The notes under the pieces are model-generated. The model was not told where the DNA came from, did no database searches, and was given only the letters and a program-made list of their open reading frames with translations. A program made the position numbers and the translations under genes. A stretch of 26,696 nt of DNA from Psammoneis japonica (Eukaryota): the NCBI GenBank assembly GCA_008632985.1, contig QPGO01000056.1, positions 186,001 through 212,696 of the forward strand, given 5' to 3'. Below are positions 1 to 26,696 of the stretch, piece by piece. Every line of letters starts with the position of its first letter. Within the stretch, counting starts at the first letter, position 1.

Positions 1-320
1 AGTTTGGAAAACATTTGTGCGTTTGATTTGTTTGGTTCACATGCATTTGCAGTGAGCGCGACCAATCTCGCGCTCATCCTCATTGCTGGACACACTGGAG
101 CCGCTTCTTTTGCGTCATTTGTGTGCACGATGCCTCAGCTTGGAACTCAACAATGACACCTGGATTTTCTTTTACACAACAAGTTTGGACAAAATTTGCA
201 TGTTTGATTTGTTTGGTTCACATGCATCCACAGTGAGCACAATCAATCTCGCGCTCATCCTTGTTGTGCGGCGTGCAGGGACCGCTTTTTTGCATCGTTT
301 GCATGCAATGGCTCTGGCTG
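1..320. repeat. Diverged tandem duplication, unit ~181 bp
   Basis: 1-~135 (agtttgga...gtttgatttgtttggttcacatgcat...agtgagc...caatctcgcgctcatcct) recurs at 182-~315 with many transitions. Confidence 0.8.
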
Positions 321-504
321 CTTGGCATGCATTTGCATTTCAATCTAATTCAGGTGCCATGTTACACAAGCACGGAACTGTTTGGCTCTGCCAGATGGCA
401 GCTCATTGCATTTTGTCCAGAGCTCTGCTGTGGCCATTTGCTTTTTTTAAGTTGCCATGTGCCCTGCTTCGCATGGTGATTTTTTGGTGTCATTGACAGA
501 ATGA

Positions 505-597
505 CAAAAAAGAGGGGAGGAGAGAGAGAGGAGAGAGAGAGGAGAAGAGAGGAGAAAAGAGAGGAAAGAGAGGAAAAGGGAGAAGAAGGCAGAAAGA
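505..597 (+). repeat. Polypurine (GA-rich) low-complexity tract
   Basis: About 90 nt made almost entirely of A and G (gagagagaggagagagagaggagaagagag...). Confidence 0.9.
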
Positions 598-1410
598 GTT
601 CAATGCTGCAAGTCCAAGTGCGTGTTGTCATGCTTTGTTTTGATGCAAAAAAGCATGTTCTTTAGTGTGCCTCCGATGAATGTGAAAAGACATAAAGTTT
701 GTAGAAACAAAGCACAAGAAAAAGTTTTCCATGTTCAAGTGAGGGTGCACCCACGACACCCAGACAACGCAGTGCAGAAAACCATCCATCACAAAAAACC
801 ACGTGCTGCAGAAGCAGCCGATGCTCGATCATTGCCGTCAAACCTTCTCTTGCAAACAACACATTAATGCAGGTCAATTCCACAATTTGCTCTGTTGTTG
901 TGTGTCCAAGAAAACAGAGGTGAGAAAGTCCCAAAATGGGTGAAAACTCCTTCTGTGTTTTTGCTGCTGTTGGCATTGCTTGATTCTCACAACTTTCACA
1001 CTTCAATTTTGTTTTTCTCGACAGATCGAAGAGCACAGACCATCCTTGTTTTGAGAATGTGTTTGATTCAACTCCTTCCCATGGAGTGAAAGAAAACACC
1101 TTGATGAGCATCGTTGCTTTATTTTGCCGCCGCCACCACGTGCTGCATGAGGCAAGAACATGCCCTGAGCATTTCTTTCATGCGATTCCACGCAGTGAGT
1201 GGTGCTCCCTTGTTCAGGGACCAAAAGGGCATGGGAGTCAGCTGTGTTGGAGAAGATGGCATTGGAGCAGGTGGTTTTGGAGCAGTGGCTGCGTGCAGGG
1301 GCTGCGATGTTGCCGTCCATGGTTGGCAAGGAGTTGGGCCACTGTGACGCCATCGATGGATGTTGGGAATGCAGTCAACTCTGCTGAAGAGCACACGACA
1401 AATCGCAGCT

Positions 1411-1773
1411 GTGAGTGGGGACTGCAATGCGACAACGCCGTCAATGGACCTCAGGAAAAAGCAGGGGTTGCGGGAACGCCAAGGGGCTGTGGTTGAGCCA
1501 TCGGGCTGTGGTGTCACCATTGGGACACCGGTCAAAAGTCGAAACAGCAGCGGCAGCAAGAGATGGAAATGGACGTGCCTGTTGTGAGGGCACATGTCGT
1601 AGCTTCGAGTGGGGACTGCAATGCAATGAAGCCATCAATGGACCTTGGGAAAGGGTGGGGGCTGCGGAAATGCTGAGGGGCTGCAGTGATGTCACCATTG
1701 GGATGCCGGTCGAAAGTCGAAATGGCAGCGGCAGCGAGAGATGGAAATGGATCTGCCTGTCATGAGGGCACAT
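1411..1773. repeat. Diverged tandem duplication, unit ~180-195 bp
   Basis: gagtggggactgcaatgc...tcaatggacct...gtcaccattggga...aaagtcgaaa...agatggaaatgga...tgagggcacat occurs at ~1413-1595 and ~1607-1773. Confidence 0.85.
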
Positions 1774-1859
1774 TTGCTTTTTGTTTTGACAGAAGGCAAG
1801 TTTTGATTGCTCTTGCTGGTGATTGCCAGTCTAGCTGCATGGCACAATGATTTCCCAAC

Positions 1860-4100
1860 TGTGGATGCATCTGGTGCTCACATGAATGTCTGCCTCCATG
1901 TCCTTTGCAGTCTTGACATTGGCAGGCACGGCAAGTCCTCCTGCCCCTTTTCTCTTTGTCAGGGCCATGCCTTCCAGGACAATGATTTTGCAAGTTTGGT
2001 GGAAGCTCATTTTCATTGAAGGCAGCAGAATTTGATCCACCAATCCTTTCAAGGCCAACAAAAAAACTGCGCTCTTGATCTGTGGGTCGCATCACCTGTG
2101 GTGGTGGGAGTTGCATTGGTTGCGGCATCATGGCTGGAGGGAGGGTCAGCAAATTTTCATGCTCTGACATTTCAGCATCATTGACCAACAACACGTCATC
2201 ATTGCTTCCTTCCAGCAGATCTGCTGGAACATTCTCCCTGTTCAATTTGTCTGGAAGTTCGATCTCAGAAGTCATCCTGTCTGCCGCATCCTGCACCCTC
2301 CTGTTTCTCTCCCATTGTTTGTGGCACTTTTTGAGTTGGTGCTCATGCTTTGGAAATGTCGTCACGCCGTTCACATGTTGAGCCCATTTCAGAGACATGT
2401 CTTTCTCGTCAAGGTGCCCATTCTCTTGCAGAACAAGTCTTGTGAACAATCTGCACTCATCCGCACCATCTGCTGGTCAGAATGGGATTGGCACTCCCTG
2501 CTGCTCGCACAAAAATTTCAAGTTGCTGGAGAAGTTGTTCTTGACTTCTTCAGGAATCTCGGCCGCTCGTGCCCGCAACATGGTGTCAAGCTCTTTGGAA
2601 TGAACAGCAACTGCAACAAAGCTTTCATTGGTGTCCAACATGTCACTGGCCACCACATGTGATGGGTGCAAGAGAATTCCATGATTCTTCTCAACCAAGG
2701 CGACCACCTTGTCAGTTTGCCATGTGTTGCAATGCCCCATTTGTGGGCAACCAGGGATTTTCTTCTCTGCCATTTGGATGTTGTGTTGGTGTCACCTTTC
2801 AGACAACAGACAGTCACTGGACACTTTGTTCACATCAAGTGTGGTTCTGACACCTGCTCGAGTTGCCAAGTCGCCTGCTTGGCATCCTGGACTTGCCTTT
2901 CTCCGGTTGTTTCGGGCATGCGGTGGCACAACATCAACCTCAAGTCCCGGTTTGGCATTGCTTGGATCAATGGGCTGAGACAGGTCTGGCAACTCAAAGT
3001 TTTTTGCACACCTCGAGGGGTTTCATGACATCATCACCAGCACATTTTATCTGTCATTGCAACAGCTCGTTCTTAGACCACTTGGAGCAACGGATGTCAT
3101 TTGACTTGTCAAGCTTCATGCCAAGAACAACATCAATGACATGCTCAAGACTGTGATTTGCACGTTGCACCACATCTCTTTCTCAAGCCATCAATCCAAG
3201 CGACACGCATTTTACAGACTGAGAGAGTCCGGGAAGGTCAAAGTCTTTTGCAAGAATGTCAAGATTGTTCTCAACATTGACACCAATGAACAAAGCCTTC
3301 TTGCTCTTCAGGAACGACAACAGCTGGTGTGGAAACAGACCTTGCTTTGGCAACTGGAACAGCAATGCAGAAACCTTTTTGTCGAGTCTGCAGCCTGTCT
3401 GCAACAGAGCAACTCTGCCAGTCTTGTGCATTCCACTGATTTGGTTCATCGCGGTGTCCCACTTGCAGTCAAAAGCATGCGGGACAGCTTCACCTTCCAG
3501 CAACCCTGACGACTCCATCTGTTCCCTCAAAGCATCAATCTTTTCATTTGTGTGCTGTGCTGGCACCAGCACTTGCATTTGCTCAGTTTCATCTTCGTGT
3601 TGTAAATTGGGATCTCCAATGTCATTGTCAAGCTCCAGATCTCCAGCTGCAATGTTGCCAGTGGAATCATCACTGCCTGAATTTCCATTCATTGCTGCTG
3701 CCATTTGGTCCAGCCACTCCTGCATTCTTTTCAACGAGTCATGACAATCCACAAGGAATTGTTTGTCCCTTGGAGCATTGTCCGAGAAAGCCATTTTGGG
3801 GCCGGATTTTCCACGTTGCTTCTCGGTGTCATCCAACACCAACAATGCGGGTTGGAGCTGTTCAAGAGAATCAGTTCTGGCAAGCACTTGAACTTGCATC
3901 TGTCCAATCTCATTTGTCCCAGTTTGCAGAGTTTCACACACGCACTTCCCTTTGCATTGACCAAGCTTTTTTGGTGCCTTCACACTTGTGTCAATGCTCA
4001 GCTGTTTCACTGATGTCTTTTTTGTCTCTGGATCAAGACAGAGCCGCAAGTCTCTGTGCTGCCAAGTCCACATGTGGAGAGGCCCTCTGTCTGGTGCACA
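1860..4100 (-). pseudogene. Degenerate Dada-like DNA transposase with embedded WRN-like DEDDy 3'-5' exonuclease; 5'-truncated and internally deleted
   Basis: Minus-strand fragments in order: LSIDTS.KAPKKL...TNEIGQ...DSLEQL...FSDN (first two catalytic-D regions); AFDCKW, GRVALLQ, FIGVNV and IRCSKWS...QIKCAGDD (Exo I-III, the last normally YA..D); DCLLSER*H.HN...GHCNTW; WAQHVNG..FPK...KQWERN; C-terminal RTCRAC..C.G.GGR..C. In-frame TGA stops are consistent with CGA>TGA. The segment expected to carry DxxH/E appears deleted near 2850. Superfamily assignment is from recalled domain order, not a search. Confidence 0.65.
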
Positions 4101-8488: not shown

Positions 8489-8537
8489 CTCAGATCGGCC
8501 TTATTCTCCATCTATACTTAAAATGCATAAACTAGAC

Positions 8538-8606
8538 GATGACAACTCTGGAGAGTGTTGGGCAGTACCATCGGATCAGGTCGCGGCTCTCCATAGCATC
8601 GCGTAA
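8538..8606 (+). repeat. Codon-aligned duplicate of the last 23 codons of the SPFH gene
   Basis: 8420-8488 encodes DDDSGEYLVPPSGQTAALHSLA*; 8538-8606 encodes DDNSGECWAVPSDQVAALHSIA*. Same length, no indels. Confidence 0.85.
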
Positions 8607-8679
8607 CACGCGTTGATGTTGCCCTCCTTTGGTTCTTTATAGCAGCTCACACTTCAAATAAATAGTACAGTAACCGTAA

Positions 8680-10024: not shown

Positions 10025-10716
10025 TGCCTTCTTTTTCTCGCTGTAATCTTCGTGTTGATGTGTGATGTGCATGATGTTCCATGTTTCTCATTTCTCTCAA
10101 AGTAATAACTTCACGCCAGGGAGTTGCGTGAAATGTCAAAATTTTCGTTTTTCCCTGGGAGTTGCATGAAATGTCGAAATTTTCGTTTTTCCCTGTTTTT
10201 CGTGGTTTTTCGTGTTTTTTCGTGACGATAATTCATTTTACACATCCCCTAAAACGTTGCATTTTGGGCTATGCGAACACCAGACACCAGATAGAAGATG
10301 GGGTCGAACGGCGAACGCGGCGATGGTTCGTTGATGCGAAGCGAAAGTCAGTGCCGTCCACCGTCACCGTGCATGCCATCATCATCCACAAACCTGTGTC
10401 ACCAGTCAATCTAAGATGACAAGATGGTGAAGCTAATGCCAGCACGTTGATTTTCAAAAAGAGATTGGAACGATGGTGCGCAACAAGTCCAGATTTACAA
10501 TTAACTCTATTCCGACACAAAACCATTTTCTTATCGTGTCTTCGTGTGCTCCACCACAGATTCCCGGCAAAATGGTTTCAGAACAATGCAGATTCAGAAA
10601 ACAAGGGCACACAACAAGTGAGTGGGCAGGAACCCATGAGAAAGGTTGCCTTCATCTTGAAGAAGGCCCCACAACTCGCACACTACTGTATGTCCTGCAA
10701 AGTGCTCAAGTATGAC

Positions 10717-11321
10717 TGTGGGATTATTGGACCACTGCGCCACTCGTCACCAAAAGAGCTCCCCGTAGAGGGGTGTTGATCGTTTTGCAATTTATTCAGT
10801 GGAACTGCTGAGTTGGCAGTGATGCGCGAGGTGCGCGCAGAATCATCGGAATTGTGGATATTCTCACACTCCCCAGCGGACGGATCACGGATGGATGTTC
10901 AAGGTGAAGGAACTGGAGTGGTCTGGACGTAACTGAGTCTTGAAGATGATTCGATGTAAGCGTGTGTGCTTGATGTGGTGCGTGCCACGTGATGTCAGCG
11001 TTGTGACGTTTGACGTTCTGAATGTTGTCTTGTTGAAGATTGAGCTCTTCCCCGCGGTGCAGACATGCGTGCGAGTAGGGGAGGATCAGCTTTCCGAGAT
11101 GAGCGAGCGTGCTGAAGGATCTGAAAGTTGGGAATCGAACCCTTGTCCTCTAACGTCGTATTGCAACCATGTGGGATTATTGGACCACTGCGCCACTCGT
11201 CACCAAAAGAGCTCCCCGTAGAGGGGTGTTGATCGTTTTGCAATTTATTCAGTGGAACTGCTGAGTTGGCAGTGATGCGCGAGGTGCGCGCAGAATCATC
11301 GGAATTGTGGATATTCTCACA
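10717..11321 (-). mobile_element. TRIM (miniature non-autonomous LTR retrotransposon), 605 bp, recent insertion
   Basis: Identical 152-bp TG...CA LTRs (10717-10868, 11170-11321) with 5-bp TSD ATGAC (10712-16, 11322-26); the site is empty in copies B and C. On the minus strand: a PBS-like TGGTTGCAATACG follows the 5' LTR, a PPT-like GGGGAG abuts the 3' LTR, and AATAAA lies in the LTR. The 301-bp interior is non-coding. Confidence 0.95.
11131..11195 (-). promoter_or_regulatory. Candidate type-2 RNA Pol III internal promoter (A box and B box) spanning the TRIM LTR/PBS junction
   Basis: Minus strand: TGGCGCAGTGG (11195-11185) matches the A-box consensus and GGTTCGATTCC (11141-11131) matches the B-box consensus, at tRNA-like spacing. 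Confidence 0.5.
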
Positions 11322-12941
11322 ATGACGCGAACCCATTGGTTCCAAATCCATTCCGATCTTGTCTGCCTCTGAATGACTGTCCTTGCAAGACAATCTACTG
11401 TGGCTCTGGGCAGGCGCATTTGTATGGTGAGTGGTACAGTCGTGTGTTGCGCATTTGACATTTCACACCATGCTAAAATGATTGATGCCGCGCCATTGCC
11501 ACACAGCAGTGTTTTTGTTGCCGCAGGTGGATTGATGGTTCCATGTGTTGTTGGGCAGGGTTCTCATTCGTTTCCAACGTCTAAAAACAATGTTTTGATG
11601 TTAGGCCTTTTAGAGAGATTCCCTTCGGGAACGCTTTTGGTGCGGTTTCGGAACGCTTTTGGTGCGGTCCCGGAACGGTGGAAACACGGGAATGACGAAA
11701 TGCCTATTTCGTCGAATGGCATTTCCGTGTTGGAGCCATTGGCGGTTGTCATAGATATGGTTTATTGTCAAACAATGCCAGCAGTTACAATGCACCCTCA
11801 CAGTTCAACTTGTGGCCACTGTAACTCAAAATTGTTGAGACTTCTACCAGCCGTTCTTTTTCTTAGAGAAAATAGAAACCTGTTTTGACGGGTGCACCTT
11901 TTTGCAATAAATCCACACAATCTGTTAAACTTTTACACTGTTGTGCCATGCTCAAATAGTTCTGACAACAGTGCACTAATTGCGGTGCATCACATGTCTC
12001 ATTGGCGAATTGACCGGCTCCAAAGTTTGATTTCCGCGCGAATTGGTGCATGTGAGAACGTTCTCGGAACGCTTTTGGAACGCTTTTGGAACGCTTTTGG
12101 AACGGCATGCAAGGGAATCTTGAACGACAATAATCCAAAATGGTCTCCAGCCCCAGTCCCCCCCAAGAGGCCTTTTTTGGTTTTGGCGGTTGGAGCCATT
12201 TGGCGGGTTTGAATTTGAAATTGCACTGTCGCACGAAGCGATGAGGTTGAGACAGTCGTGACTGGTTCAAATCGGAGTTCGGGATCGAGAAGGGAACTCA
12301 ACGGCGTCTCTTGCAGTCGTGCGGTGCCATGCGTGTCATCATGCGTGCAGAAACGCCGTGACCGACAACGTGATGTGCTCATGGCAACCACCCATGATGT
12401 GTGCATGGACACACAAATTTGAACACAGTAGAAAATGAGCGCACAGGCAGGCACCGATAGAAGGTGTCGTCATCATCGATTGTCGCACCGTTTTGTCGTT
12501 CATTTCAGTGCTTGATGTCACCATGCCAACCCAATTGAGTGAGTGCAGGTTGTCATTTTTCACGCACTGTGCAACATCATTTAAACATTCTCATTCCATC
12601 CAGTGGGTTGTCTTCTCAACGAGAAATTTTGGCGGGGTCTGGTGAAGACACAACCACCTGCATTTCTGGGGGCATTTTGTCTCAGCACTGGTTGGGAAAA
12701 AAGGCAATTGCTGAGAAACCTTCCATGGAATTTTGACATTTTGTCAAATCAAACAGAGCCCCAAAAACACAGGATTTGTCCTGCAGCCAAATGCAACATT
12801 GTGTGTCTGTGGCATGTCCCCTGGCAAAAAGTGCGAGCAGCGTTTTGGTGGCAAGTGCACAAACTTTCGCAGCATCGTGCAGACTGTGGCGGCACTCGCG
12901 TGCAGGCGCAGGTCTCTCTGACATTCTGTGCGTTTTTCCAG

Positions 12942-15900
12942 GGAGTTGCATGAAATGTCAAAATTTTCGTTTTTCCCTGCAAAAACGCACAGAATGTCAG
13001 AGAGACCTGCCTGCACGCGAGTGCCGCCACAGTCTGCACGATGCTGCGAAAGTTTGTGCACTTGCCACCAAAACGCTGCTCGCACTTTTTGCCAGGGGAC
13101 ATGCCACAGACACACAATGTTGCATTTGGCTGCAGGACAAATCCTGTGTTTTTGGGGCTCTGTTTGATTTGACAAAATGTCAAAATTCCATGGAAGGTTT
13201 CTCAGCAATTGCCTTTTTTCCCAACCAGTGCTGAGACAAAATGCCCCCAGAAATGCAGGTGGTTGTGTCTTCACCAGACCCCGCCAAAATTTCTCGTTGA
13301 GAAGACAACCCACTGGATGGAATGAGAATGTTTAAATGATGTTGCACAGTGCGTGAAAAATGACAACCTGCACTCACTCAATTGGGTTGGCATGGTGACA
13401 TCAAGCACTGAAATGAACGACAAAACGGCGCGACAATCGATGATGACGACACCTTCTGTCGGTGCCTGCCTGTGCGCTCATTTTCCACTGCATTCAAATT
13501 TGTGTGTCCATGTGTACATCACAAGCAGCTGCTGTGAGCACATCACGTTGTCACGGCGTTTCTGCACGCATGATGATGCGCATGGCACCGCGCGACTGCA
13601 AGAGACGCCGCTGAGCTCCCTTCTCGATCCCGAGCTCCGATTTGAGCCAGCCACGACTGTCTCAACCTCATCGCTTTGTGCAACAGCACAGATTTCAAAT
13701 TCAAACCCGCCAAATGGCTCCAACTGCCAAAACCAAAAAAGGCCTCTTGGGGGGGACTGGGAGTTGCACGAAATGTCGACATTTTCGTTTTTCCCTGTTT
13801 TTCGTGGTTTTTTGTGACGACAACTCATTTTACACATCCCCCAAAGCTTTGCATTTGGGGCTGTGTGAACACCAGACACCGGACAGATGGGGTCGAGTGA
13901 AGAGCGAACGGCGAAGGCGGTGATGGTTTGTTGTGCGAAGCGAAAGTCAGCGCTGTCCACCGTCACCGTGCACGCCATTGTCATCCATGAACCTGGGTTG
14001 CCAGTCAGTCTAAGATGATGAGATGGTGAAGCCAATGCCAGCACATTGATTTTCAAAAAGAGATTGGAATGATGGTGCGCAACAAGTCCAGATTTACAAT
14101 TGACTCTGTTCCGACACAAAACCATTTTCTTGTCGTGTCTTCATGTGCTCCACCACAGATTCCCAGCAAAATGGTTTCAGAACAATGCAGATTCAGAAAA
14201 CAAGGGCACACAACAAGTGAGTGGGCAGGAACCCATGAGAAAGGTTGCCTTCATCTTGAAGAAGGCCCCACAACTTGCACACTGCTGCATGTCCTGCAAA
14301 GTGCTCAAGTGTGACGTGAACCCATTGGCTCCAAATCCACTCCGATCTTGTCGGCCTCTGAATGACTGTCCTTGCACGACAATCTGCTGTGGCTCTGGGC
14401 AGGCGCATTTGCATGGTGAGCAGCACAGTTGTGTGTTGCGCATTTGACATTTTGCGTTGTTGTGCTAAAATGATTGCTGCCGCGCCAGTGCCACACAGCA
14501 GTGTTTTTGTTGCCGCAGGTGGATTGATGGTTCCATGTGTCATCAGGCAGGGTTCTCATTCGTTTCCAACGTCTAAAAACAATGCTGTGATGTCAGGCCT
14601 TTTAGAGAGATTCCCTTTGGGAACGCTCTTGGTGCAGTCCCGGAATGCTTTTGGTGTGGTCACGGAATGGCGGAAACATGGGAACGACGAAATGCCCATT
14701 TCGTCGAATGGCACTTCCATGTTGGAGCCATTGGCGGTTGTCATGGATGCGATTTAGTGTCAAACAACACTGGTGGTTGCAGCACATCACAGCAGTTTAA
14801 CTCACAGCCACTGCAACTCAAAATTGTTGAGACTTCCAACAGCCGTTCTTTTCCTTAGAGAAAACAGAAACCTGTTTTGACGGGTGTGCCTTTTTGCAAC
14901 AAATCCATCTAATCTGTCAAACTTTTGCGCTGTTGTGCCACACTCAAACAGTTCTGACAATGGTGCACTGATTGCAGCGCATCACATGTCTCATTGGCGA
15001 ATTGACCGGCTCCAAAGTTTGATTTCCGCGCGAATTGGTGCATGTGAGAACGTTCTCGGAACGGTGTTGGAACACTTCTGGAGCGCTTTTGGAGCGGCAT
15101 GCAAGGGAATCTTGAACGACAACAACCCAAAATGGTCTGGCCCTCAGTTCTCCCCAAGAGGCCTTTTTTGGTTTTGGCGGTTGGAGCCATTTGACGGGAT
15201 TTGAATTTGAAACCTGCACTGTCGCATGAAAAGCGATGAGGTTGAGACAGTCGTGGCTGGCTCAAATCGGAGTTTGGGATCGAGAAGGGAACTCAACGGC
15301 GTCTCTCTTGCAGCCGCACCTGCCATGCAGCACACTCATGCGTGCAGAAACGCCGTGACAACATCATGCATGTGCTCTCACAGCAACTCCGATGATGTGC
15401 ACATGGATGTGCAAATGTGAACACAGCAGGAAATGAGCTGACAGGCGGGCACCGACAGAAGGCAACGTCAGCATCGATTGTCGCACCGTGCTGTCGTTCA
15501 CTCAGTGCTTGTGATGATGCACCATGCCAACCCAATTGAGTGAGTTGTTTTTCACACACTGCACAACATCATTTTGACATTCTCGCTCTAGTGGGTTGTC
15601 TTCTCAACGAGAAATTTTGGCAGGGGTCTGGTGAAGACACAACCACCTGCATTTCTGGGGGCATTTTCTCTCGGCACTGGTTGGAAAAAAGACAATTGTT
15701 GAGAAGCCTTTCATGGAATTTCGACATTTTGTCAAATCAACCAGAGTTCCAAACACACAGGATTTGTCCTGCAGCCAAATGCCTCGAATGTTGTGTGTCT
15801 GTGGCATGTCCCCTGGCAAAAAGTGCGAGCATCGTTTGAGTGGAAAGTGCACAAACTTTCGCAGCATCGTGCAGACCGTGGCACTCGCATGCAGGCAGGC

Positions 15901-17348
15901 AGGTCTCTCTGACATTTCTGTGCGTTTTTGCAGGGAAAAACGAAAATTTTGACATTTCATGCAACTCCCTGGGGCCAGAGACTATTTTGGATTGTTGTCG
16001 TTCAAGATTCCCTTGCACACCGTTCCAAAAGCATTCCAAAAGCGTTCCGAGAACGTTCTCACATGCACCAATTCGCGCGGAAATCAAACTTTGGAGCCGG
16101 TCAATTCGCCGGTGAGACATGTGATGCATTGCAATTGGTGCACCATTGTTGGAACTGTTTGAGCATGGCACAACAGTGTAAAAGTTTAACAGATTGCATG
16201 GATTTGTTGCAAAAAGGTACACCCGTCAAAACAGGTTTCTGTTTTCTCTAAGAAAAAGAACGGCTGGCAGAAGTCTCAACAATTTTGAGCTGCAGTGGCC
16301 ACAAGTTGAGCTGTGAGGGTGTGTTGTAACCGCTGGCATTGTTCGACAATGAACCATGTCTGCAACAACCGCCAATGGCTCCAACACGGAAATGCCATTC
16401 GACGAAACAGGCATTTCGTCATTCCCGTGTTTCCACCGTTCCGGGACCGTGCCAAAAGCGTTCCGAAACCGCGCCAAAAGCATTCCCGAAGGGAATCTCT
16501 CTAAAAGGCCCAACATCAAAACATTGTTTTTAGACGTTGGAAACGAATGAGAACCCTGCCCGATGATGCATGGAACCATCAATCCACCTGCGGCAACAAA
16601 AACACTGCTGCATGGCAATGGCGCGGCATCAATCATTTTGGCATGGTGCAAAATGTCAAATGCACAACACACGACTGCACTGCTCACTGTGCAAATGCGC
16701 CTGCCCAGAGCCACAGTGGATTGTCTTGCAAGGACAGTCATTCAGAGGCAGACAAGATCGGAATGGATTTGGAGCCAATGGGTTCACGTCATGCTTGAGC
16801 ACTTTGCAGGACACACAGCAGTGTGCGAGTTGTGGGGCCTTCTTCAAGATGAAGGCAACCTTTCTCATGGGTTCCTGCCCACTCACTTGTTGTGTGCCCT
16901 TGTTTTCTGAATCTGCATTGTTCTGAAACCATTTTGCCGGGAATCTGTGGTGGAGCACACGAAGACACGACAAGAAAATGGTTTTGTGTCGGAGTGGAGT
17001 TAATTGTAAATCTGGACTTGTTGCGCACCATCACTCCAATCTCTTTTTGAAAATCAACGTGCTGGCATTGGCTTCACCATCTTGTCATCTTAGATTGACT
17101 GGCAACACAGGTTTGTGGATGATGATGGCATGCACGGTGACGGTGGACGGCACTGACTTTCGCTTCGCATCAACGAACCATCGCCGCGTTCACCGTTCGA
17201 CCCCATCTGTCTGATGTCTGGTGTTCGCATGGCCCAAAATGCAACGTTTTACTGCAGGGGATGTGTAAAATGAATTGTCGTCACGAAAAAACAGGAAAAA
17301 CCACGAAAAACAGGGAAAAACGAAAATTTCGACATTTCATGCAACTCC
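12942..17348 (-). mobile_element. TIR element copy B (reverse), split by copy C into 12942-13759 and 15972-17348
   Basis: Reverse complement of copy A. The sequence resumes exactly across the copy C insertion (ggggga-CTG...CTG-gggccagagac). Confidence 0.88.
13760..15968 (+). mobile_element. TIR element copy C (forward), complete 2209 bp, nested in copy B
   Basis: Both TIRs are intact, with a perfect CTG TSD at 13757-59 and 15969-71. Confidence 0.93.
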
Positions 17349-19188
17349 CAGAAAAAGCGTTCTCCGAGCTCGCGACGCGATCTTCAGTCTGCTGGTGGGA
17401 GCGCGTGAGCGCGAGCTGATCGGCATCCGCACCTTCCCATCCATGCATTGGAGAAACTGACCTCTTCGCTGCACAACAGTTTGAAGGAGTCCCTCATTTT
17501 TTGAGTTTGTTTGAGGAAGAGACAACAAAGAGTCAGCAGGAGGGCGTGCACAGAGAACGGGCTCTCTTGAGCCGCAGCACGTGCGGCACCAGGCCACTCC
17601 TCTGAGCGGCACAGCACACAAACCAAAAATGAGCTCTGGCAAACATTTGCCACCTTTTCTTGCATGACACTGCTCCAGATCTTTTTGTTCTGAAGCCTCT
17701 TCCTTGCCTTTGTTCAATGCTTTCTTTTTCAATTTTCCTCTTTCTCTCCCCCCTCGTCGTCCCCCCCACCCATGTTTTTTTTTGCCAAAACGCCCTTTTT
17801 TGTTGTTGGCGGCAAGCCCAGTGTTCACATGTGGACCTTGACAACTGTTGTGTTTGGCAATCAAGCAAACATGTTGTTATTTCACAAAGCAGCACAATGT
17901 GAAAAATGTTTGCACTCAGCACATGTGGACTCACACAGTGCAAAGAACCTGCGCCGAGTCAAGTGCCTTGCAACAGGAACAGCGGACATTGCAAATTTTC
18001 CACAACTTGTCGAAACACAATGACAATGGTGACCTCGAATGCAACATGCTCCACCAGTGGCCATGTGCTCACCACAACACTGACATGCAAGGACAGCACG
18101 CATTTAATTTCATGTGTGCATGCCTTTGATGTGCAGCAAAAAAAATGGGCGTTTGAGTGGGACCGCCGACTTGTCATTTCCACCTTTGTCCTAAAAACAG
18201 CATTGCATTTGAATGAGGCCATTTGCAGTTGTTCATTTTAAATGTTAAAATTGTTTGATGATTGTCCATGAAAACAAGAACATCAGGCACCGCAGTCGAA
18301 GCACGACGATGACGGCCATCATGTCATCTCTCAAAATTGGCCCAGTGGCATGAGGGATGGAAGTGCATGCAAATCAATCTACACTGCATCACAACAACAA
18401 AGCCAATGAGCGTTCCTTGTGAGGTGATGCTTTGCAACTCACCGCTTGTTGCAAACATTGTTGTTGTCACTCGTGCTTTTGTTGTTGTGTTGTTTTCTGT
18501 TGCAACCCATCAAAAATGTGGAAAAACCCGGAAAAGGGACGTGCAAAAAAAGAGCCAACGTCCCCCTTGAGCAGGAAAAAAACAACTCAGGTTGTCCCCC
18601 CTGCTGTGTCAGGAGGCCACAGCGGCTCCCCCTCCTCATCATTTTGCTGCAGCAGCTCAGCACCGTGCCCACTTTGAATGCGCTGCCCAGCTGTTTTTTG
18701 TGCAATGATGCATGTGCTTCCTCCAGAGTGGTGACAACAGTGGTGCAAAAGACTTTTTGCAGCTGCTCAAAATGTGGGATTTGCGTGACCACTGCCAGAA
18801 GTTGAGTGTTTGTCACTTGGCCTTGAAGACATCATCATTTCTCTCTCTCTGTCCTGATGACACACCACTCCTCTTCTCCTCTGGCTGGTGTGGTGCACAT
18901 GACCTTGTGTGGTTCACTGTGCTGGTCAGCCCCCACAGTCAATGTGAGAGCACAAGCTGTGGAACAATGGACAGATTCATGTCATGGGCGTGGCCACTGA
19001 TGTTTGTTGATTGGCCTCTGTGTTGATCACATTTTGTCCCTTCAGTCTAAAAAAAACATCCCATTTGCCATCAAAAGGGATTTTCCTGACAACAGTCATT
19101 TGTTGGCAGAGTCAGACATCAAGGATCAGGCAAGTCAATGGAGCAATTGACATGGTGTTGTGCAGCATGATTTCCAAGTGTCATCCTC

Positions 19189-19919
19189 CTGTGCTTGATG
19201 TGCATGAGGCTGGTCAATTGGCAACTTCTGTGAAGGAGTGTGTTGGAACATTGGGGCCAGAGGTGGTTTTCACAAGACAGACAAAGTTGCAGTTCAGGGT
19301 GCAGTGATGATTGTGGACAATGTGGCAAGTTTGCATTCATGACTCGGTTGAGTTGTGAGTCTTGTGCTCACTTTTTAGCTTCTGCACCTGGTTGACACAG
19401 TGATGACAGCTGGCAACAACAGCCAATGTGTTTGCAATTCACAAAGTGAGCCAGGAGATGGCAAGACCAAATGTCCACTTGATTGCAAATTCCAATCTAC
19501 TTTCCCAGCCCTTGTCTGCAGATGTTTTTCAACTTCCCAACCTTTGAATGATGCCACTCCTTTGAGTGTCATGCTGCAACTTTTTGGTTTCTGTGTTGGA
19601 GCTTTGTGGCTTGCTGACTGGTGCACATTGGGTCTCGCTGTCTGTGAAATCACCATGTGGCTTGCAAATGCATTGCCACATTGCTGTCAACTGCTGCTGC
19701 TGTGTTGACCAAGTGCAAATGCTAAAAGGCAAGCTCAAGACCTGCAACTCAACCTCTGAGCTGTGAGAATGCAAACTTGCCACATTTTCCACAATTGTCA
19801 GTGCATCTCACACAGCAACTTTGCACGTCTGTCCTGTAAAAAACCACCTCTGACCCCAATGTTCTAACAGTTGTGTGCTGTTTGTCAGGAGCTGCCAACT
19901 TTTGTTCCATCAAGCACAG
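19189..19919. repeat. Diverged inverted repeat, arms ~19189-19368 and ~19732-19919, spacer ~360 bp
   Basis: gaacattggggccagaggtggtttt...caaagttgc...attgtggacaatgtggcaagtttgcattc...ggttgagttg matches the reverse complement of caactcaacc...gaatgcaaacttgccacattttccacaat...gcaactttg...aaaaccacctctgaccccaatgttc. Confidence 0.8.
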
Positions 19920-20060
19920 CCATGTTTCCAAAGTTGAGCAAACCAAGCAAAGTTTGATCAACAAATTCTGTGCCTGGCAGTCATTCTGTTGTCAACAAGG
20001 AAGTTGCACCCAGCTCCATGGTGCTGCACATTTTTTCAAGTTTGCTGAGTTCTCAGCTCC

Positions 20061-21440
20061 ATGCCAATGGAGCTGGCTCCTGCTGTTTTGACAAAATGCA
20101 TGTCTGCACGCACAATTGAGTTGGCAACACACTGCACCAGCACACCAACATTGGCTCAAAACAATCTGCATTTGGAGGGGAAGGGTCTGGGACCAAATGG
20201 GCAAGATGAGCAGCCTGAGTTGTGCTGTGTAAGTTTGGAGGAGATGCCAAATCTTTTCAAACTGGTGCCACCACAGCAGCTCCAGTTTGATGATGAGCAA
20301 GCTCAATTGAATCACCAGAGACAATTGGCACCCCAAAAAAAAGCTTTGAGAGAAAAATTGTGAACAGTCATTCTTTTGACATGTTGACATTGGTGAATTG
20401 ACAATGTGCTGGGAGCATGGTAAATTTCTGTTTCTGCAGATCTTGTCATGGTGCAGTGGAGTCATTGGGCACTGTGGCATTGTTTGTTGTTTACATGAAC
20501 ACATTCACATGCACATCTGCATGTGCACAATTTGTTGACTGTGTGCTCTGAAGCTGACAATGACAAGGATGTCTTAAAAGCCAGAGAGATGGCATCTCGA
20601 TCAACAACATCTGGAGTCCATCTTGACACCATCTTGACAATGGAGCACACAAAAAAATGACAAACTGCAAGACCAAGATGCCGACTCTCGAAATGAGTCT
20701 GGATCCAGCTACAATTTCCTGCTTGTTGCCATTCGTTTTCTGTTTTTGGGCTGATGAGATGATGGCTAACTGACAGTTTGTTGTCGCATGTTGTTTGTAA
20801 GTCTACACGTTGGATTCTAAATGCCATGTGGAAGTTCTTGTGCAACGAATCGAGATGTTGTTTGACCCTTTCGATTGTCTCTGGAGCAAACCAAAAAAGT
20901 GGTTTAGATTTCAACAAGCGCAACATGCCACCGATCAGTGCGACACGCAGATGTTTCATGTTGATTTTTTAAACATTAACACACATCATGTTGTGTGCAC
21001 AAACACAATGATGGCTCTCTAGAGAGGAGCAGTGCAGAACAAGTCAGGTCTTCCCATGCGAAAGTTCTCATAGTCCGGATGTGCTGAGCAACACGAAACG
21101 CCTTCAGCAAGTCATTGTCTCTTTCATAGCCGACGAGCTCATGGCGGCGGAAGCTGCCGCGGTTCCCCATCTCCTCAAGCCCTGCATGCCTCTTTTGGAA
21201 ATGACTAAGTTGCTTTCCAAGGCGACGCCGCAGAGATGCGAAAGTCATGGAAACTATGGCAAGTCCTGGATGAGTCCCCAACCAGGCGCTAGCATGATTG
21301 GCAAGTTGTTGGAGTTTGATAGGCAAGGACAGGAGAATGTCATCAACTTGATGGAGTCAGTGCCTGTTCAGGTCCACAAATCAGCATGGAGAGGCCACAA
21401 AGAGAGATTCGTGGAAACTTGAATGACAATGCCAGCCTAA
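20061..21440 (+). pseudogene. Fragmented coding remnant of unknown family
   Basis: Protein-like fragments at 20061-20363 and 21081-21422 end in TGA. The second continues to TAA at 21438-40, about 65 bp from the convergent host gene's stop. Confidence 0.35.
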
Positions 21441-21504
21441 AGATATTGTGTCGGTCATGAGAGAACGTTCTGGGCACGGGTTGTGTTGTGGCAAGCCATG
21501 TACC

Positions 21505-22841
21505 TCAGAAAACGCACTCGGCGAGAGCTGGCACTTTTTCGGCATCCCCGAATGCTTCTAATGCTTCCATTCGACGATCATACTCAATAAGCTCCTTGAG
21601 CAGCGCAGAAGACGATCGGCGGGTTCCAACAAAGGCTGATCGCGCTCTCGACGCGAGTGCCAAGTCCTGAAAGTACCCTACTCCCGCATACGGACCGTGT
21701 TCCGCCCGCCAGCTCTCTCCTAGATCGTGGTTTGCAATTTGGACAGTGCAATTTCTTTTGTTTCTGAGAAATTGTGATAGCTTCGATAATGTGCACACTC
21801 GATCAGACATGAGAAAGGCTCGACAGAATTCCTGTTTTTCTTCTCGAGCAGCAAGCACTTGATCCAAACAATTCTTTTCATGATCAATCGCACAGCCTTC
21901 ATTGGTGACGTTGGAGTGCCGTGAATGCAAAGAGAGCGAAAATTCCTTTGGATGGTGATACTGATTGGTTTCAAGAATGGCTTTCGTAAATCGAAAACTG
22001 CGTCGAAAGAGCATCCCATACAAAAAATCGGTGCCCAAACTGTACAGAGAAGCAGCTGTCGATCGAGCCCAAAATGTATGCAACAGTTGTTTGCTTTTCC
22101 TTGGCGCCATCCCTAACCTTCCCAACATTTGAGGAAAGGCCACAACAAGATGTTTGTAATCCGCGTCTACTCCAATGCGATTTTCTGGCTTAATGCCGTA
22201 CTTTCTGTTTTCTTTCTCGTCACCATTCCAGTGTGTTGCCCAATGTGAAACCTGATGAGGCCGCCCGGGGAGATTCAGTCGGCGCGAAACGTCCTGGTAT
22301 GAAGGAATCCACCGTGAACGCTCCAAAATATTATCACAGTCTTTGACATGGTTGGCACTAGCACAAATGCCGCTGTCATGATCTTGTCCATACTGTTGAC
22401 AGTTTTGCGTATCCCAATAGTCCCAAAGAAGCGTTCGATTCGTCAGGATGGCCCACAAGAAGCCTGTGCTTAAACAAAAAGATCGACAAAGAATTACTTA
22501 CGACACTATCTTCCTTGCAAACAATAGTTGCATGCTAGGATATACCTACTGTTCATAAAATGATGCAATCGGTTCCCCGCCTGTTGTGGACACGAATAGT
22601 ATGCAACGGCATACAATCGATTTTCGGGCTGCCGTCTAAGACTCTCAACGGAATGCCATTCAATGTATTGTTCTATGACATGCCACGGTTTCTTCCCTGT
22701 CGGAGATGATTTCGCGATTGGTCGATCAGCAGCCGACGCTTTCGCATTCATTTGCATCAAGCTCACGCGAGTCCTCAACATATTCCAGAACTGGACCGCG
22801 AGTAGGAGCAGCAGTCCAAAATACAGCATGTTATTAGCCAT
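21505..22841 (-). CDS. Putative glycosyltransferase (fucosyltransferase-like type II membrane protein), 416 aa; exons 22841-22550 and 22463-21505
   Basis: N-terminal hydrophobic anchor. An 86-nt GTAGGT...CACAG intron gives AGNRLHHFMNSFLWAILTNRTL. SLHSRH, FLMSDR and QDLALASRARSAFVGT..SSS resemble the three conserved motifs of alpha-2/alpha-6/O-fucosyltransferases. The gene model is solid; the function is inferred. Confidence 0.75.
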
Positions 22842-22966
22842 GCTCGCAACACGGTGGCACCACTCTAGCTTGTAGGGATTCTTGACGATACAGGGTTCAG
22901 CTCTTTCTGAAGAAGCGTTTGTCTACCGGTACGTGAAGGTGGAGTGAGGCAGTTTCAAGTTGAAAA

Positions 22967-23452
22967 AGCGGCTATCGCCGCTTTTCTCGTTTATCCTCGG
23001 CGGCGATCTTCAAGCTAGTGTAAATCTAAAGGCCAGTGATCCAAGGTAGGAGTGGAGTGGGCTTTACTAGCACACGAACTTTCCTTCTCCAAACAAAAAA
23101 CCCAGGCTGGACGGCAAGGGCCAGAGGGCGGGAGAGGTGGGAGCGTTTTAATCTATCTAGGGCCCTCCGGGCCGGCTTGCTGTTGTTGTTTCCAAAGGAA
23201 TGAGAGGAAACAAAGCAGCCGGTGAGAGAGGCGGCCAGGAAGTTCGGGAACTTTCAAATGGAATGGGGAATCTCGCCTTGCGGATTGTTCGAGGACAGCG
23301 GCTATCGCCGCTTTTCTCGTTTATCCTCGGCGGCGATCTTCAAGCTAGTGTAAATCTAAAGGCCAGTGATCCAAGGTAGGAGTGGAGTGGGCTTTACTAG
23401 CACACGAACTTTCCTTCTCCAAACAAAAAACCCAGGCTGGACGGCAAGGGCC
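22967..23452 (-). repeat. Split direct repeats: B2 22967-23122, A2 23123-23296, B1 23297-23452
   Basis: Two identical 156-bp copies (agcggctatcgccg...ggacggcaagggcc) offset by 330 bp. Calling the spacer A2 is inferred from Ngaro architecture. Confidence 0.9.
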
Positions 23453-23552
23453 TCCAGCCACCTCCAAATGCACTGCATGAGCTGCGCAGGGCGCAGTGGA
23501 GGCTGTGATAAATTGGGTGGGAGAGGTGGGATCGTCTGGCGGGCTGTGGCGG

Positions 23553-24706
23553 TCAAGGCATGGCAGGAGCAATGGGAACGTCGGCATTCGGATGGAGGAC
23601 GAAGTGGCCACCGGCGAGCATGCGTTGGGCGAAATTGCGCATGACAGGCTCCGCTTGCAGATGGAGGTGTCGGAGCATTTCGTGGACCGCCATCGGCCCA
23701 AGAGACGAATTGTGTCCGTGTCGACTTGGGCACACAGCAATCCCATGGCACCCGCGGCTCGAAGGCAGTGCGCGGAGACATCGGAGGGAAGGAATCCGAG
23801 ATTCTGTGGACCAAGTGCAGTGACGGCAGTGCGGAGGATGGACGTGATGTCAGTGGGACTGACTCGGTGCCAGCGTCCGTTGCAGAAGTAGACTGACAAA
23901 GGTGTGTCAGGCAAAGCGCCAAAGGCGCGCAAGTGAAGTGTTCGGCGTACGGCAGCTTTGACGGGGCAGAGTTGCGGGTGGCCGGAGAGGCCAAGGCCGA
24001 CAACTTCGCCACGAACTCCATTCTTTTGCGCAGTGAAGGTGAGCGTGGTGAAGGTTGCAGCGGCGAGCTGCGCATCTGGGGTGTGGAAGACATCCAAATA
24101 GATGCCACCAGCGGAGAGGCGTACGTCGGCGAGCCAAAAAGGAGCAGTCTCCGAAGGGGTGGCTGTGTGTTCACCAGGATGCAAGAGAAAGAAAAAGGCA
24201 AGGGCGATCATGTCAGCGACAGCATGGGTGCCGGGGTGCTGACTGGCAGCAGCAGCAGCCAAGATCCAATGGAGTGCGGCCACGGGGACAGGTTTTACAC
24301 AGTCGGTGGGCGGATCCTGCTTCTTGCAGCAACGGATCTGGCGGGTAAGACGGAAATCCAAGCCGCCTTGGAGGGTGAGCCGTGGGTCCGGGGCCCCCAT
24401 TGCAGCGAACGTTTGGCCAACCGACCGCAGGGCATCTTCAGCGGTGCGTGCACGGATGGGATTGCCACGTGGGGCGAGGACTCCGACTCGACATCGGTGG
24501 AGGAAGACTTGGAGGAATGAGATGGGGTCTTCGACTTCGACAAGGAGTGGATCGACGGCCAGTGTGTGGCAGAAATTGGCCCAGAGGTTCCAATGGGTGT
24601 CGGCGGCGGAGGCTCGTGAAGGGGTGACTGCGAGGGCAACGGCTCTCTGCGCAGCACCGAGGTCACGAAGGAAATCAGCTTTCGTGGCGGGGTCCACAAG
24701 CGCCAA
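23553..24706 (-). pseudogene. Tyrosine recombinase of the YR retrotransposon, inactivated
   Basis: AFFFLLHPGEH (normally LRPGEY), QKNG.RGE, CPVKA, SAHCLRAAGA and LLGRWRS, then a frameshift near 23683 into EMLRHLH (catalytic Tyr replaced by His), ending at 23553. Confidence 0.9.
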
Positions 24707-26696
24707 GGTTTGGTCTGCGGGTGATGAGCATTAAAATGGTGCAAAAATTCCGTGTTGGTCAGGGATTGTAAACGGGAAGCATCGTCAGCGGCGGTGTTGA
24801 GGGTGCCTTGTAGGAAGTCGTGAATGGTGACGTGACAATGGAATCGTTGATGGCAAGCTTGGTGGCGATGGAACTCGGCACGAAGCTTAGAGGCAGTGGA
24901 GGAACCTTTGCGTTGCCAGAACAAAGCACCTGAACCATCAGTGCGCTGAAGGTTGGTGCGCTCCCGCAGGTCGAAACATTCGGATGCAGCGCATGAATGG
25001 ACGATGCTGCCCACGAGTTCAAGGTCGGTGTTGGTGATCGGGCCGTGAGGATTCTCGTAGGTGGCGAGGTCCTGGGTGACCTGGTTTGGGAAAGGCATGT
25101 GCCAAACAACGGGACCGGGGTTGGTTTGAATGCGGCGGCGTCCGTGTGGACTAAATTTTAGTTTGGTGGCGCGTGGGACGGAGGCTGCGGTGGGTAAGAT
25201 GACACCGCCGGCGCCATGACCGGCCGCATCATGGCAACCATGGACACTCGGGTCCAAGGGGACAAGTTCTTGAATGCGCACCGGGCGTTGTTCGACGCAT
25301 GCNNNNNNNNNNNNNNNNNNNNNNNNNNNNNNNNNNNNNNNNNNNNNNNNNNNNNNNNNNNNNNNNNNNNNNNNNNNNNNNNNNNNNNNNNNNNNNNNNN
25401 NNNNNNNNNNNNNNNNNNNNNNNNNNNNNNNNNNNNNNNNNNNNNNNNNNNNNNNNNNNNNNNNNNNNNNNNNNNNNNNNNNNNNNNNNNNNNNNNNNNN
25501 NNNNNNNNNNNNNNNNNNNNNNNNNNNNNNNNNNNNNNNNNNNNNNNNNNNNNNNNNNNNNNNNNNNNNNNNNNNNNNNNNNNNNNNNNNNNNNNNNNNN
25601 NNNNNNNNNNNNNNNNNNNNNNNNNNNNNNNNNNNNNNNNNNNNNNNNNNNNNNNNNNNNNNNNNNNNNNNNNNNNNNNNNNNNNNNNNNNNNNNNNNNN
25701 NNNNNNNNNNNNNNNNNNNNNNNNNNNNNNNNNNNNNNNNNNNNNNNNNNNNNNNNNNNNNNNNNNNNNNNNNNNNNNNNNNNNNNNNNNNNNNNNNNNN
25801 NNNNNNNNNNNNNNNNNNNNNNNNNNNNNNNNNNNNNNNNNNNNNNNNNNNNNNNNNNNNNNNNNNNNNNNNNNNNNNNNNNNNNNNNNNNNNNNNNNNN
25901 NNNNNNNNNNNNNNNNNNNNNNNNNNNNNNNNNNNNNNNNNNNNNNNNNNNNNNNNNNNNNNNNNNNNNNNNNNNNNNNNNNNNNNNNNNNNNNNNNNNN
26001 NNNNNNNNNNNNNNNNNNNNNNNNNNNNNNNNNNNNNNNNNNNNNNNNNNNNNNNNNNNNNNNNNNNNNNNNNNNNNNNNNNNNNNNNNNNNNNNNNNNN
26101 NNNNNNNNNNNNNNNNNNNNNNNNNNNNNNGAACCCATCGGACATGTCTATTTTCATGAGGTGGACCCGTCCTTTGGCGGGATCGGCAAGGAGAATGCGA
26201 CGCAAGAGTCGATCGAGCGCGCGTCCAAATTGCGTGGCCTCGACCGGTGCGTTAGGCTGTGTGGCGTCGTTGGTGCCAAAATGCGTGTAGTCGACAATTG
26301 GCCGAGGCCGTCGACTGTGTTGTGGGACCACGCCAATGGGGCTAATGCGGAGGCCCGGCAGTTGTCGGACTTCCTCGCACGGGACCACGACCCAGAAACC
26401 CTTGTCCACACAGTCGGACATGTCTTCTCGTAAAAACTCGATGTGTTCGTAGGCGGACTTGTGGGGGCCCCTGTCGACACTAGCGTCGAGTTCCTCAGAG
26501 CTCCATGGTGCGTCGGCAACGGTGATGGGGACTCCGTGATGCTGGCAGTGGCGAAGGATCCGGCGTGCCGGATGATTCTGAATGCGGCGCATCGGGCCCA
26601 AGTCACCTCGTCCACGACGTTGACGCAACAAATGGCTGAGACCGTGCTGACGCAAAATTTTAGTGTCGCGTGTGACACTCTACCTAATTTGTCAGT
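24295..26696 (-). pseudogene. Reverse transcriptase-RNase H ORF of the YR retrotransposon (degenerate, gapped)
   Basis: RT motifs RGPHKSA, LRISPIGVVPQ..RRPRPIVDYT and KIDMSDGF; RNase H motifs GCHDAAGHGAGGV, ITNTDLEL and N.AADDASR. A Ser/Pro-rich tail overlaps the YR ORF by ~410 nt. Confidence 0.88.
25303..26130. other. Assembly gap (828 N)
   Basis: Run of N. Confidence 1.

Follow-up and report, generated by a model that had tools for sequence, protein, structure and literature searches.

Why does the dead copy of a mobile element carry histidine or cysteine where its enzymes are expected to have tyrosine? The question arises on the minus strand of positions 23553-26696 of a 26,696-nucleotide stretch of contig QPGO01000056.1 (the window, by which we mean the whole stretch analysed), which is a dead DIRS-like retrotransposon copy with a pol gene followed by a tyrosine recombinase. 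A first-pass annotation of the DNA had proposed that tyrosine codons (TAY) had become CAY (His) or TGY (Cys) in seven motifs because TA was the ancestral state at these sites and had been mutated, and that such a mutator disables tyrosine-dependent enzymes while erasing TAA and TAG stops. Following up this proposal, we conclude that hypermutation of TpA at the level of DNA very probably explains the rewriting of tyrosine codons in the DIRS-like copy. The element is laid out as follows.

23553..24730, minus strand: remains of the tyrosine recombinase open reading frame (ORF), in two frames, ending at TGA (23555-23553)
24295..25302, minus strand: C-terminal portion of pol, with the RNase H-like region and the tail, ending at TAA (24297-24295)
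25303..26130: run of 828 N, unreadable, hiding the reverse transcriptase (RT) core
26131..26679, minus strand: N-terminal portion of pol, as far as RT motif A (KIDMSDGF), containing VVPCEEV at 26368-26388

The tyrosine positions were read against relatives from one metagenome scan (80 related loci out of 367 confirmed, 37-80 of them per segment), and a column was called conserved at no less than 80% agreement among these relatives. All seven motifs were located where the annotation had placed them, and the two CAC codons that it quoted (23669-23667 and 24169-24167) are correct. The codons in question within the recombinase are these.

23667..23669, minus strand: nucleophile Tyr of the recombinase (RYLH; here EMLRHLH), CAC (His); Tyr in 80/80 relatives
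24167..24169, minus strand: invariant Tyr of LLRPGEY, CAC (His); Tyr in 80/80 relatives (TAC 40, TAT 40)
24179..24181, minus strand: box-I catalytic Arg of LLRPGE, CAT (His); Arg in 80/80 relatives
24326..24331, minus strand: TGC TGC (Cys Cys) in RCCKKQD, a Tyr-Tyr pair in the nearest relatives
24491..24493, minus strand: TGT (Cys) in HRCR; Tyr in 44/80 relatives, Val in 30

Relatives spell the nucleophile TAC (67) or TAT (13), and those with intact catalytic residues carry TAY at the positions that are CAY or TGY in the window. With both the box-I Arg (CGC in 33 relatives, CGG in 15, CGT in 14) and the nucleophile replaced by His, the catalytic residues of the window recombinase are not intact; the roles given to these residues are putative, assigned by the known motif order of the family. 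The second Cys of RCCKKQD is Tyr in 66/80 relatives; the first is Ala (27), Ser (22) or Gly (13) in the loci of the relatives, Tyr in the nearest proteins (P0001, P0004, P0008-P0010) and CAC in a contig of a sibling copy. The Cys of VVPCEEV is Tyr in 22/37 relatives. Of the motifs that the annotation had listed as converted tyrosines, EMLRHLH and PGEH stand on invariant columns, as does IKCAGDD in a second element described below, where the Tyr of the DEDDy exonuclease is present in 8/8 homologues; its premise that the nucleophile Tyr and the DEDDy Tyr are conserved was correct. GCHDA has to be dropped, the position being variable among relatives (Thr 13, Ala 11, Tyr 9, Phe 7 of 58).

Across the DIRS-like element, only one of seven conserved Tyr columns is kept, the others having become His (three), Cys (two) and Phe (one); by segment, 0/3 are kept in the recombinase, 1/1 in the RT start and 0/3 in the RNase H part (His, Phe, Cys). 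Conserved Phe and Trp, by comparison, are kept in 23/23 columns, and the tabulation that the annotation had called for thus shows Tyr to be lost far more than Phe or Trp (6/7 vs 0/23; p = 1.2e-5). Changes affect 29/281 non-Tyr conserved columns, and the Fisher test of Tyr against non-Tyr loss, computed with 30/281, gave p = 1.6e-5. Arg is kept at 30/35 conserved columns, all five losses leading to His or Cys, that is, CpG transitions. The whole recombinase coding sequence contains 2 Tyr where relatives have a median of 7.5 (range 4-12), and 6 TA dinucleotides against a median of 30.5 (range 11-48). One metagenome protein, P0003, 68% identical to the window copy, reads HRHR, RCCKKED, PGEH and MLRCLH, and among 201 recombinase sequences only P0003 and the window copy have His or Cys at three of the four conserved Tyr columns, which hints that hypermutated copies exist in environmental data too.

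The loss of tyrosine follows a loss of TA that is specific to this dinucleotide. The element has 21 TA where position-matched relatives predict 73.5 (0.29), while the other 15 dinucleotides lie at 0.73-1.22 of expectation. In a leave-one-out comparison the window had a lower observed/expected TA ratio than the lowest relative in each segment: 0.20 vs 0.36 in the recombinase, 0.47 vs 0.49 in the RT start and 0.26 vs 0.49 in the RNase H part. These figures bear on the simplest alternative, namely that a dead copy has decayed neutrally, under G+C pressure or biased gene conversion, and has lost its tyrosines by chance. The copy is indeed dead, with a frameshift and a lost Arg, and it is somewhat richer in G+C than its relatives; against such decay, TA stands at 0.29 while AA, AT and TT stay at 0.75-0.97, conserved TA is kept at 0/4 positions where AA (4/4), AT (5/5) and TT (13/13) are all kept and nearly all other dinucleotides are kept at 83-100%, the depleted tracts have sharp edges and spare host genes, and the bias of Tyr over Phe and Trp loss is itself improbable by chance. 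We therefore regard neutral decay as a most improbable account. As separate observations on the relatives, L027, L028 and L042 have the lowest leave-one-out TA ratios (0.36-0.51) and may be either mildly hypermutated copies in other organisms or simply G+C-rich, and L012, L078 and L080, with CG observed/expected (o/e) of 0.48-0.50, CA/TG of 1.3-1.47 and near-normal TA, show CpG decay without TpA loss.

That TA is the ancestral state, as the annotation had supposed, emerged from three independent tests, using outgroup relatives, three-copy repeats and sibling copies. In the first, the 37-80 relatives with intact catalytic residues serve as outgroups, their TAY codons standing opposite CAY or TGY in the window. 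At the 23 places with TA in no fewer than 40% of relatives, the dinucleotide in the window is TG at 7, CA at 6, TA at 3 and another one at 7. The second is free of any outgroup and uses a repeat cluster elsewhere in the window.

10148..17356: nested direct and inverted copies of a ~2.2 kb unit

Pairwise comparison of repeat copies gives no direction; among three copies, the occurrence of CA and TG at one site points to a TA ancestor, because single steps reach both only from TA or CG. Over 460 variable dinucleotide columns we counted 14 sites of the pattern {CA,TA,TG}, 20 of {CA,CA,TG}, 14 of {CA,TG,TG} and 3 of {CA,CG,TG}. Positions 12152-13761 form a 94% palindrome, and the copy at 10148-12156 keeps 36 TA where its partners keep 3-8 per segment. 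We also considered the opposite polarity, with a process like repeat-induced point mutation (RIP) turning CA into TA either in the relatives or in the repeat copy that has fewer mutations; the outgroups and the three-copy patterns together rule it out. Two features of the cluster may be recorded here: the heavy TA depletion of the palindrome begins at the palindrome's own start, and a second exact direct repeat, of 152 bases (10717-10868 and 11170-11321), lies within the less mutated repeat copy.

Sibling copies supplied the third test. Three sequencing runs were available, all from one sample and study: contigs of run X1 (DNA) could be placed on 17400-25302, those of X2 cover only 20832-23207, and X3 gave none. 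Word depth in X1 is ~68 for single-copy DNA and 150-570 over the element, which therefore has several sibling copies. Relative to the window, X1 siblings show double changes between TG and CA at 23668/9, 24300/1, 24330/1, 24863/4 and 25098/9, so that siblings have been hit independently at the same TA sites; the nucleophile codon is TGC (Cys) in a sibling contig where the window has CAC. One sibling contig retains the base whose loss breaks the window recombinase frame, and one keeps CGT at 24181-24179, in line with the annotation's view that the catalytic Arg was lost separately, by CGT>CAT at a CpG. These differences between siblings are a hint of recent activity.

Both strands are hit. The near equality of TG (7) and CA (6) on the coding strand indicates DNA as the target, with no RNA intermediate, and it is here that A-to-I editing of retroelement RNA by an ADAR-like or ADAT-like enzyme, fixed through reverse transcription, has to be weighed. 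The idea is natural for a retrotransposon, and ADAR-type enzymes prefer U before the edited A (10.64898/2026.01.13.699255). In animals, hyperediting by ADAR or APOBEC enzymes cripples mobile elements by deamination-type transitions. Editing of this kind predicts A>G on the coding strand only, whereas Tyr has become His as often as Cys; ADAR and APOBEC enzymes act on RNA or single-stranded cDNA with a strand bias, whereas here the strands are hit equally and elements other than retroelements are hit too. The same signature is borne by a DNA-transposon-like element and by non-coding inverted repeats, and genomic copies with over 98% identity have TG in one where the other has CA. ADAR also prefers G on the 3' side, in contrast to the 3' order found here (T, C > G > A; see below). 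Strand symmetry refutes RNA editing for the window copy, and we assign the editing route a very small probability.

Could the signature instead have been made by sequencing or assembly, through a modified base at TpA in repeats that is misread as C or G? The TA-poor tracts fall on repeats, where base modification is likely, and all the runs found come from a single study. Against such an artefact, the TA-poor stretches are recovered in X1 contigs, at a word depth of ~68, with 0-3 differences in each piece; P0003, from an unrelated metagenome source, has the same kind of substitutions at three of four conserved Tyr columns; and the deletion and CpG changes seen alongside are what a truly old copy would show. 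An artefact is thus very hard to credit.

A second element at the other end of the window bears the same mark.

1..4100, minus strand: hypermutated, Dada-like element with DUF6729, a DEDDy 3'-5' exonuclease and a C-terminal Cys-rich tail

It has 157 homologues, the window copy being a degenerate version of a protein of ~1500 amino acids; homologues of 1284-1549 amino acids match the Pfam families DNA_pol_A_exo1 (E 4e-13 to 7e-17) and DUF6729. As the annotation had noticed, the Tyr of the ExoIII motif is Cys in the window (IKCAGDD, 3030-3050, minus strand). None of six conserved Tyr is kept (Cys five times, Trp once), compared with losses at 42/187 non-Tyr columns (p = 1.8e-4) and at 1/12 conserved Phe and Trp. 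In-frame stops of this copy fall mostly at Arg positions of the homologues, the pattern of CGA>TGA at CpG. Some Dada DNA transposons are described as proteins of ~1500 amino acids with an inserted DnaQ-like 3'-5' exonuclease and a C-terminal Cys-rich motif, and exonuclease-bearing Dada elements are reported there from the stramenopile Ectocarpus (Kojima and Jurka 2013, PMC3706591). The element at 1-4100 shares the DEDDy exonuclease within a ~1500-residue protein and the C-terminal Cys-rich motif with that description; the Dada label is a lead that rests on the exonuclease architecture.

The sites that survived, and those that did not, reveal a preference for the 3' neighbour. The 84 TA left in depleted zones include no ATAC and no ATAT, whereas among 303 TA of normal zones ATAC makes up 17% and ATAT 7%; CTAA (26), GTAA (20) and TTAA (11) are in excess among the survivors. 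At 77 inferred ancestral TA sites of the three-copy repeats, the event rate by 3' base was 0.47 for T, 0.43 for C, 0.32 for G and 0.20 for A, while the base 5' of the T had no effect (0.34-0.38). These values are suggestive of a 3' preference TAT, TAC > TAG > TAA, the motif being T-A-Y, or R-T-A if thymine is the target. Since all Tyr codons are TAY, they lie in the preferred context.

The ambiguity of the motif brings in a further alternative, that the thymine of TpA is modified, for example oxidised to 5-hydroxymethyluracil by a JBP/TET-like enzyme, and then mispaired or misrepaired to give T>C. TpA is self-complementary, so that A>G and T>C on the opposite strand are indistinguishable, and the observed context reads equally well either way; in dinoflagellates, moreover, 5-hydroxymethyluracil sits preferentially in TpA. 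Nothing in this analysis shows thymine modification in the organism, our literature search returned no paper joining 5-hydroxymethyluracil, transposons and TpA, and the only published treatment, as far as its main text goes, proposes adenine deamination (10.64898/2026.01.13.699255). We consider the thymine route unlikely.

A change of TA to TG or CA destroys TAA and TAG and makes no stop from any sense codon. In 23553-25302 TAA and TAG occur at 2.6 and 2.0 per kb per strand, where the medians of the relatives are 5.85 and 8.7; TGA shows no such drop (13.1 vs 14.6), and in one sibling contig the pol stop TAA has become CAA. The claim of the annotation that stops are erased holds to this extent, on evidence weaker than that for tyrosine. 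A search for an erased pol stop in the window itself was negative at column 355, a stop in 15/58 relatives, where the window has TCA, which is no product of TA>CA or TA>TG; at column 361, a stop in three relatives, the window has TGG, which is suggestive only, as the position of the stop varies among relatives.

Taken in order, the element copy very probably integrated into the genome first and was then hit by a DNA-acting process confined to TpA, through which ~70% of its TA dinucleotides became TG or CA by A:T to G:C transitions on either strand. A hit on the coding strand would yield Cys (TGY) and a hit on the other strand His (CAY), and tyrosine codons would be prime targets, being TAY without exception, in view of the preference for a pyrimidine 3' of the A. 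In this way the recombinase nucleophile, the PGEY tyrosine and several pol tyrosines would have been removed and, in the Dada-like element, the tyrosine of the DEDDy exonuclease, while the box-I Arg would have been lost separately via an ordinary CpG transition. As the process destroys TAA and TAG and creates no stop, a dead copy would keep long open frames; the visible frames of the window copy contain no stop codon and one frameshift, a single-base deletion. That tyrosine enzymes are efficiently killed, in the annotation's words, would be a consequence of this chemistry rather than a demonstrated purpose. By analogy with Bigelowiella natans, the enzyme may be a DNA adenine deaminase of the ADAT2/TadA kind aimed at silenced or foreign DNA, as proposed there; we infer both enzyme and targeting, and hold this assignment to be evenly poised between right and wrong.

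Within the window the process is confined to repeat DNA, and the host genes lie in a zone of normal TA content.

8750-10087, minus strand: PP2C phosphatase (Pfam, E 5.4e-53)
7391-8485: weak match to Band_7 (Pfam)

In a 500-base profile, TA o/e is 0-0.17 in the repeat zones 1-4000 and 12001-20500, 0.16-0.34 across the DIRS-like element and 0.42-0.77 around PP2C and Band_7; metagenome loci of the relatives range from 0.38 to 0.88. The TA count falls from 48 in 22400-23509 to 14 in 23510-25302. CG o/e is ~1.0 in the DIRS-like element and 0.04-0.08 in 19001-20500, so TpA loss and CpG loss are separable. In that latter segment CG and TA (o/e 0.08) are both nearly gone, with CA/TG o/e of ~2.0, and X1 word depth reaches 2914 at 19248-19511 with many joints, the picture of a high-copy, satellite-like repeat. 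An exact 156-base direct repeat (22967-23122 and 23297-23452, spacing 330), with 8 TA per copy, is also high-copy (word depth 984 in X1 and 695 in one X2 contig). Lying directly next to the hypermutated element and itself unmutated, it gives a sharp tract edge near 23510-23553.

The Pfam scan of ORFs behind these assignments, which places host genes within 4001-12000 of a eukaryotic window, covered 64 of 71 ORFs of at least 110 amino acids; the seven others lie in 23348-26696, two of which were scanned separately, one with its upstream stop codon included in the reference. Organism names among the best 120 PP2C matches are all those of diatoms (Amphora, Seminavis twice, Cylindrotheca, Attheya, Fragilariopsis and a tag 'Psemu1', which we take to be Pseudo-nitzschia), and the closest homologue is just 45% identical. 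Because the named matches are all diatoms and the best is so distant, the host is probably a diatom and, judged by the same protein comparison, is not Bigelowiella natans.

Several observations weigh against the view that a TpA-specific process accounts for the tyrosine losses. The RT start is less depleted (TA 8 vs 17.0 expected) than the recombinase (6 vs 29.9), and the G+C content of the copy is generally above that of the relatives (AA, AG and AT at 0.73-0.78 of expectation; CC, CG and GC at 1.17-1.22), so part of the A/T loss is not TA-specific. The sample of conserved Tyr in the element is small, seven columns, and one of them became Phe by a transversion. At 15 places of the element, 23668/23669 and 24180 among them, none of the X1 contigs placed there has the letter of the window; the window's CAC at the nucleophile and CAT at the Arg are not seen in X1, whose contigs have TGC and CGT, and X1, which is part of a single study, may itself be the source of the window sequence. 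The context preference was measured against rough baselines, with sites at which all three copies changed alike excluded. Finally, repetition alone is not the trigger, given that the high-copy 156-base repeat beside the element keeps its 8 TA per copy.

The putative assignment of the element to the DIRS order rests on several lines of comparison. Related loci have a unit of ~6 kb in the order pol then recombinase; the recombinase ORF has 238 homologues with 70% identity to the best (P0001), the C-terminal part of pol is 41-48% identical to the pol frames of 58 relatives and the N-terminal part ~50% identical to 37. The frame of the window recombinase, recovered by tblastn in two frames, is broken by a one-base deletion in the Asp codon that follows GRWRS (between 23684 and 23683), and the window copy is without its 5' part. 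Direct profile searches were poor: Pfam found nothing relevant on the three window ORFs of the element, phmmer of the recombinase ORF against PDB gave no meaningful match, the recombinase profile A1 had 0 matches in PDB, and Phage_integrase matched the recombinase weakly (E 0.25). The predicted structure of the relative P0001 (mean predicted local distance difference test, pLDDT, 81.8) matches Cre recombinase (E 1.4e-6, template modelling score 0.52-0.67), followed in the fold search by Xer recombinases and integrases, so that the element ORF is predicted to carry the Cre/integrase catalytic fold; the segment of this model holding the Tyr (residues 331-352) has pLDDT <50. A pol profile of 20 relatives matches human immunodeficiency virus 1 RT over motif A (E 0.0048), with RVT_1 in Pfam sub-threshold (E 0.21-0.23), and the consensus of the RNase H region conserves HDASG, DLE and DN motifs, profile and fold searches of it being without match. 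Like DIRS1, Ngaro and PAT-like elements, the unit of ~6 kb has a pol with putative RT and RNase H-like regions followed by a Cre-like tyrosine recombinase, and Pfam found neither integrase nor protease; in the relative L062 no inverted terminal repeats or internal complementary region were found, only a unit repeat of 6161 bases, and the Pfam models stay below threshold.

Some details of the layout may be added. The N run at 25303-26130 looks masked rather than an unsized assembly gap, its length being about that of the RT core of relatives; the corresponding interval of L001 (3207 to 4039) measures 832 bases. In the window (24295-24730) as in relatives (L001 4608-4986, for example), pol ends and the recombinase begins within ~400 shared bases that are read in different frames. 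Some contigs contain more than one unit (L062, L004, L076 and L022; period ~5.9-6.2 kb, with a 100% repeat in L062); they hold the element in tandem, or else are assemblies of a circular or terminal-repeat form of it.

How does the process compare with known ones? Our literature search found it unreported in diatoms, the only report being a 2026 preprint on B. natans in which, in mutation-accumulation lines, de novo changes occur only at TpA, giving TpG or CpA, and sit in an integrated giant virus and virophage, and in which TpA-poor coding sequences are enriched in RT and DDE genes and an ADAT2-like candidate is named (Mettrop et al., 10.64898/2026.01.13.699255). According to the description given there, the two cases agree in targeting TpA only, with TpG or CpA according to strand through A:T to G:C transitions, in being confined to foreign or repeat DNA in an otherwise normal genome, and in the footprint of low TA with high CA and TG. 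They differ in that the targets here are transposons and inverted repeats whereas those reported are viral inserts; in that depletion here is far deeper (TA o/e 0-0.17 vs 0.45 in the region of nucleocytoplasmic large DNA virus, NCLDV); in that only a footprint is seen here, whereas there mutations were seen arising; and in the host, a chlorarachniophyte there and diatom-like here. Neither the 3' neighbour preference nor the fate of Tyr codons is described in the main text of the preprint, and the preference TAT, TAC > TAG > TAA is to that extent an addition to the published account of B. natans. Fungal RIP, too, is confined to repeats and specific for a dinucleotide; it hits both strands of integrated DNA and can inactivate transposons. 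In RIP, CpA becomes TpA, which raises TA, makes DNA AT-rich and creates stops; here, in contrast, TA is converted to CA or TG, G+C rises and stops are erased and never created, and an exact high-copy repeat beside the window element is untouched.

Finding the same TpA footprint in transposons of what is probably a diatom, and at much greater depth, suggests that the process either is old and widespread in the SAR supergroup (stramenopiles, alveolates and rhizarians) or arose more than once. It is conceivable, although we lean against it, that diatoms and chlorarachniophytes share a dedicated defence by a DNA adenine deaminase guided to silenced mobile DNA, with a preference for T-A-pyrimidine, which disables elements by missense at Tyr and other codons containing TA, with their frames left open, and is still active here, the last because siblings of over 98% identity carry TA hits independent of one another; if so, open but dead frames would get into gene calls and metagenome protein sets. 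The preference for TAY over TAA is a testable property for candidate deaminases. The rule of Tyr to His or Cys is a simple, alignment-free marker that fixes the polarity of the process, and hypermutated tracts give rise to long ORFs that are spurious and to 'proteins' in which His or Cys takes the place of a catalytic Tyr, P0003 being an example; these can mislead annotation. For the elements themselves, the rule explains how recombinases, exonucleases and polymerases that need tyrosine are inactivated while their frames are kept open.

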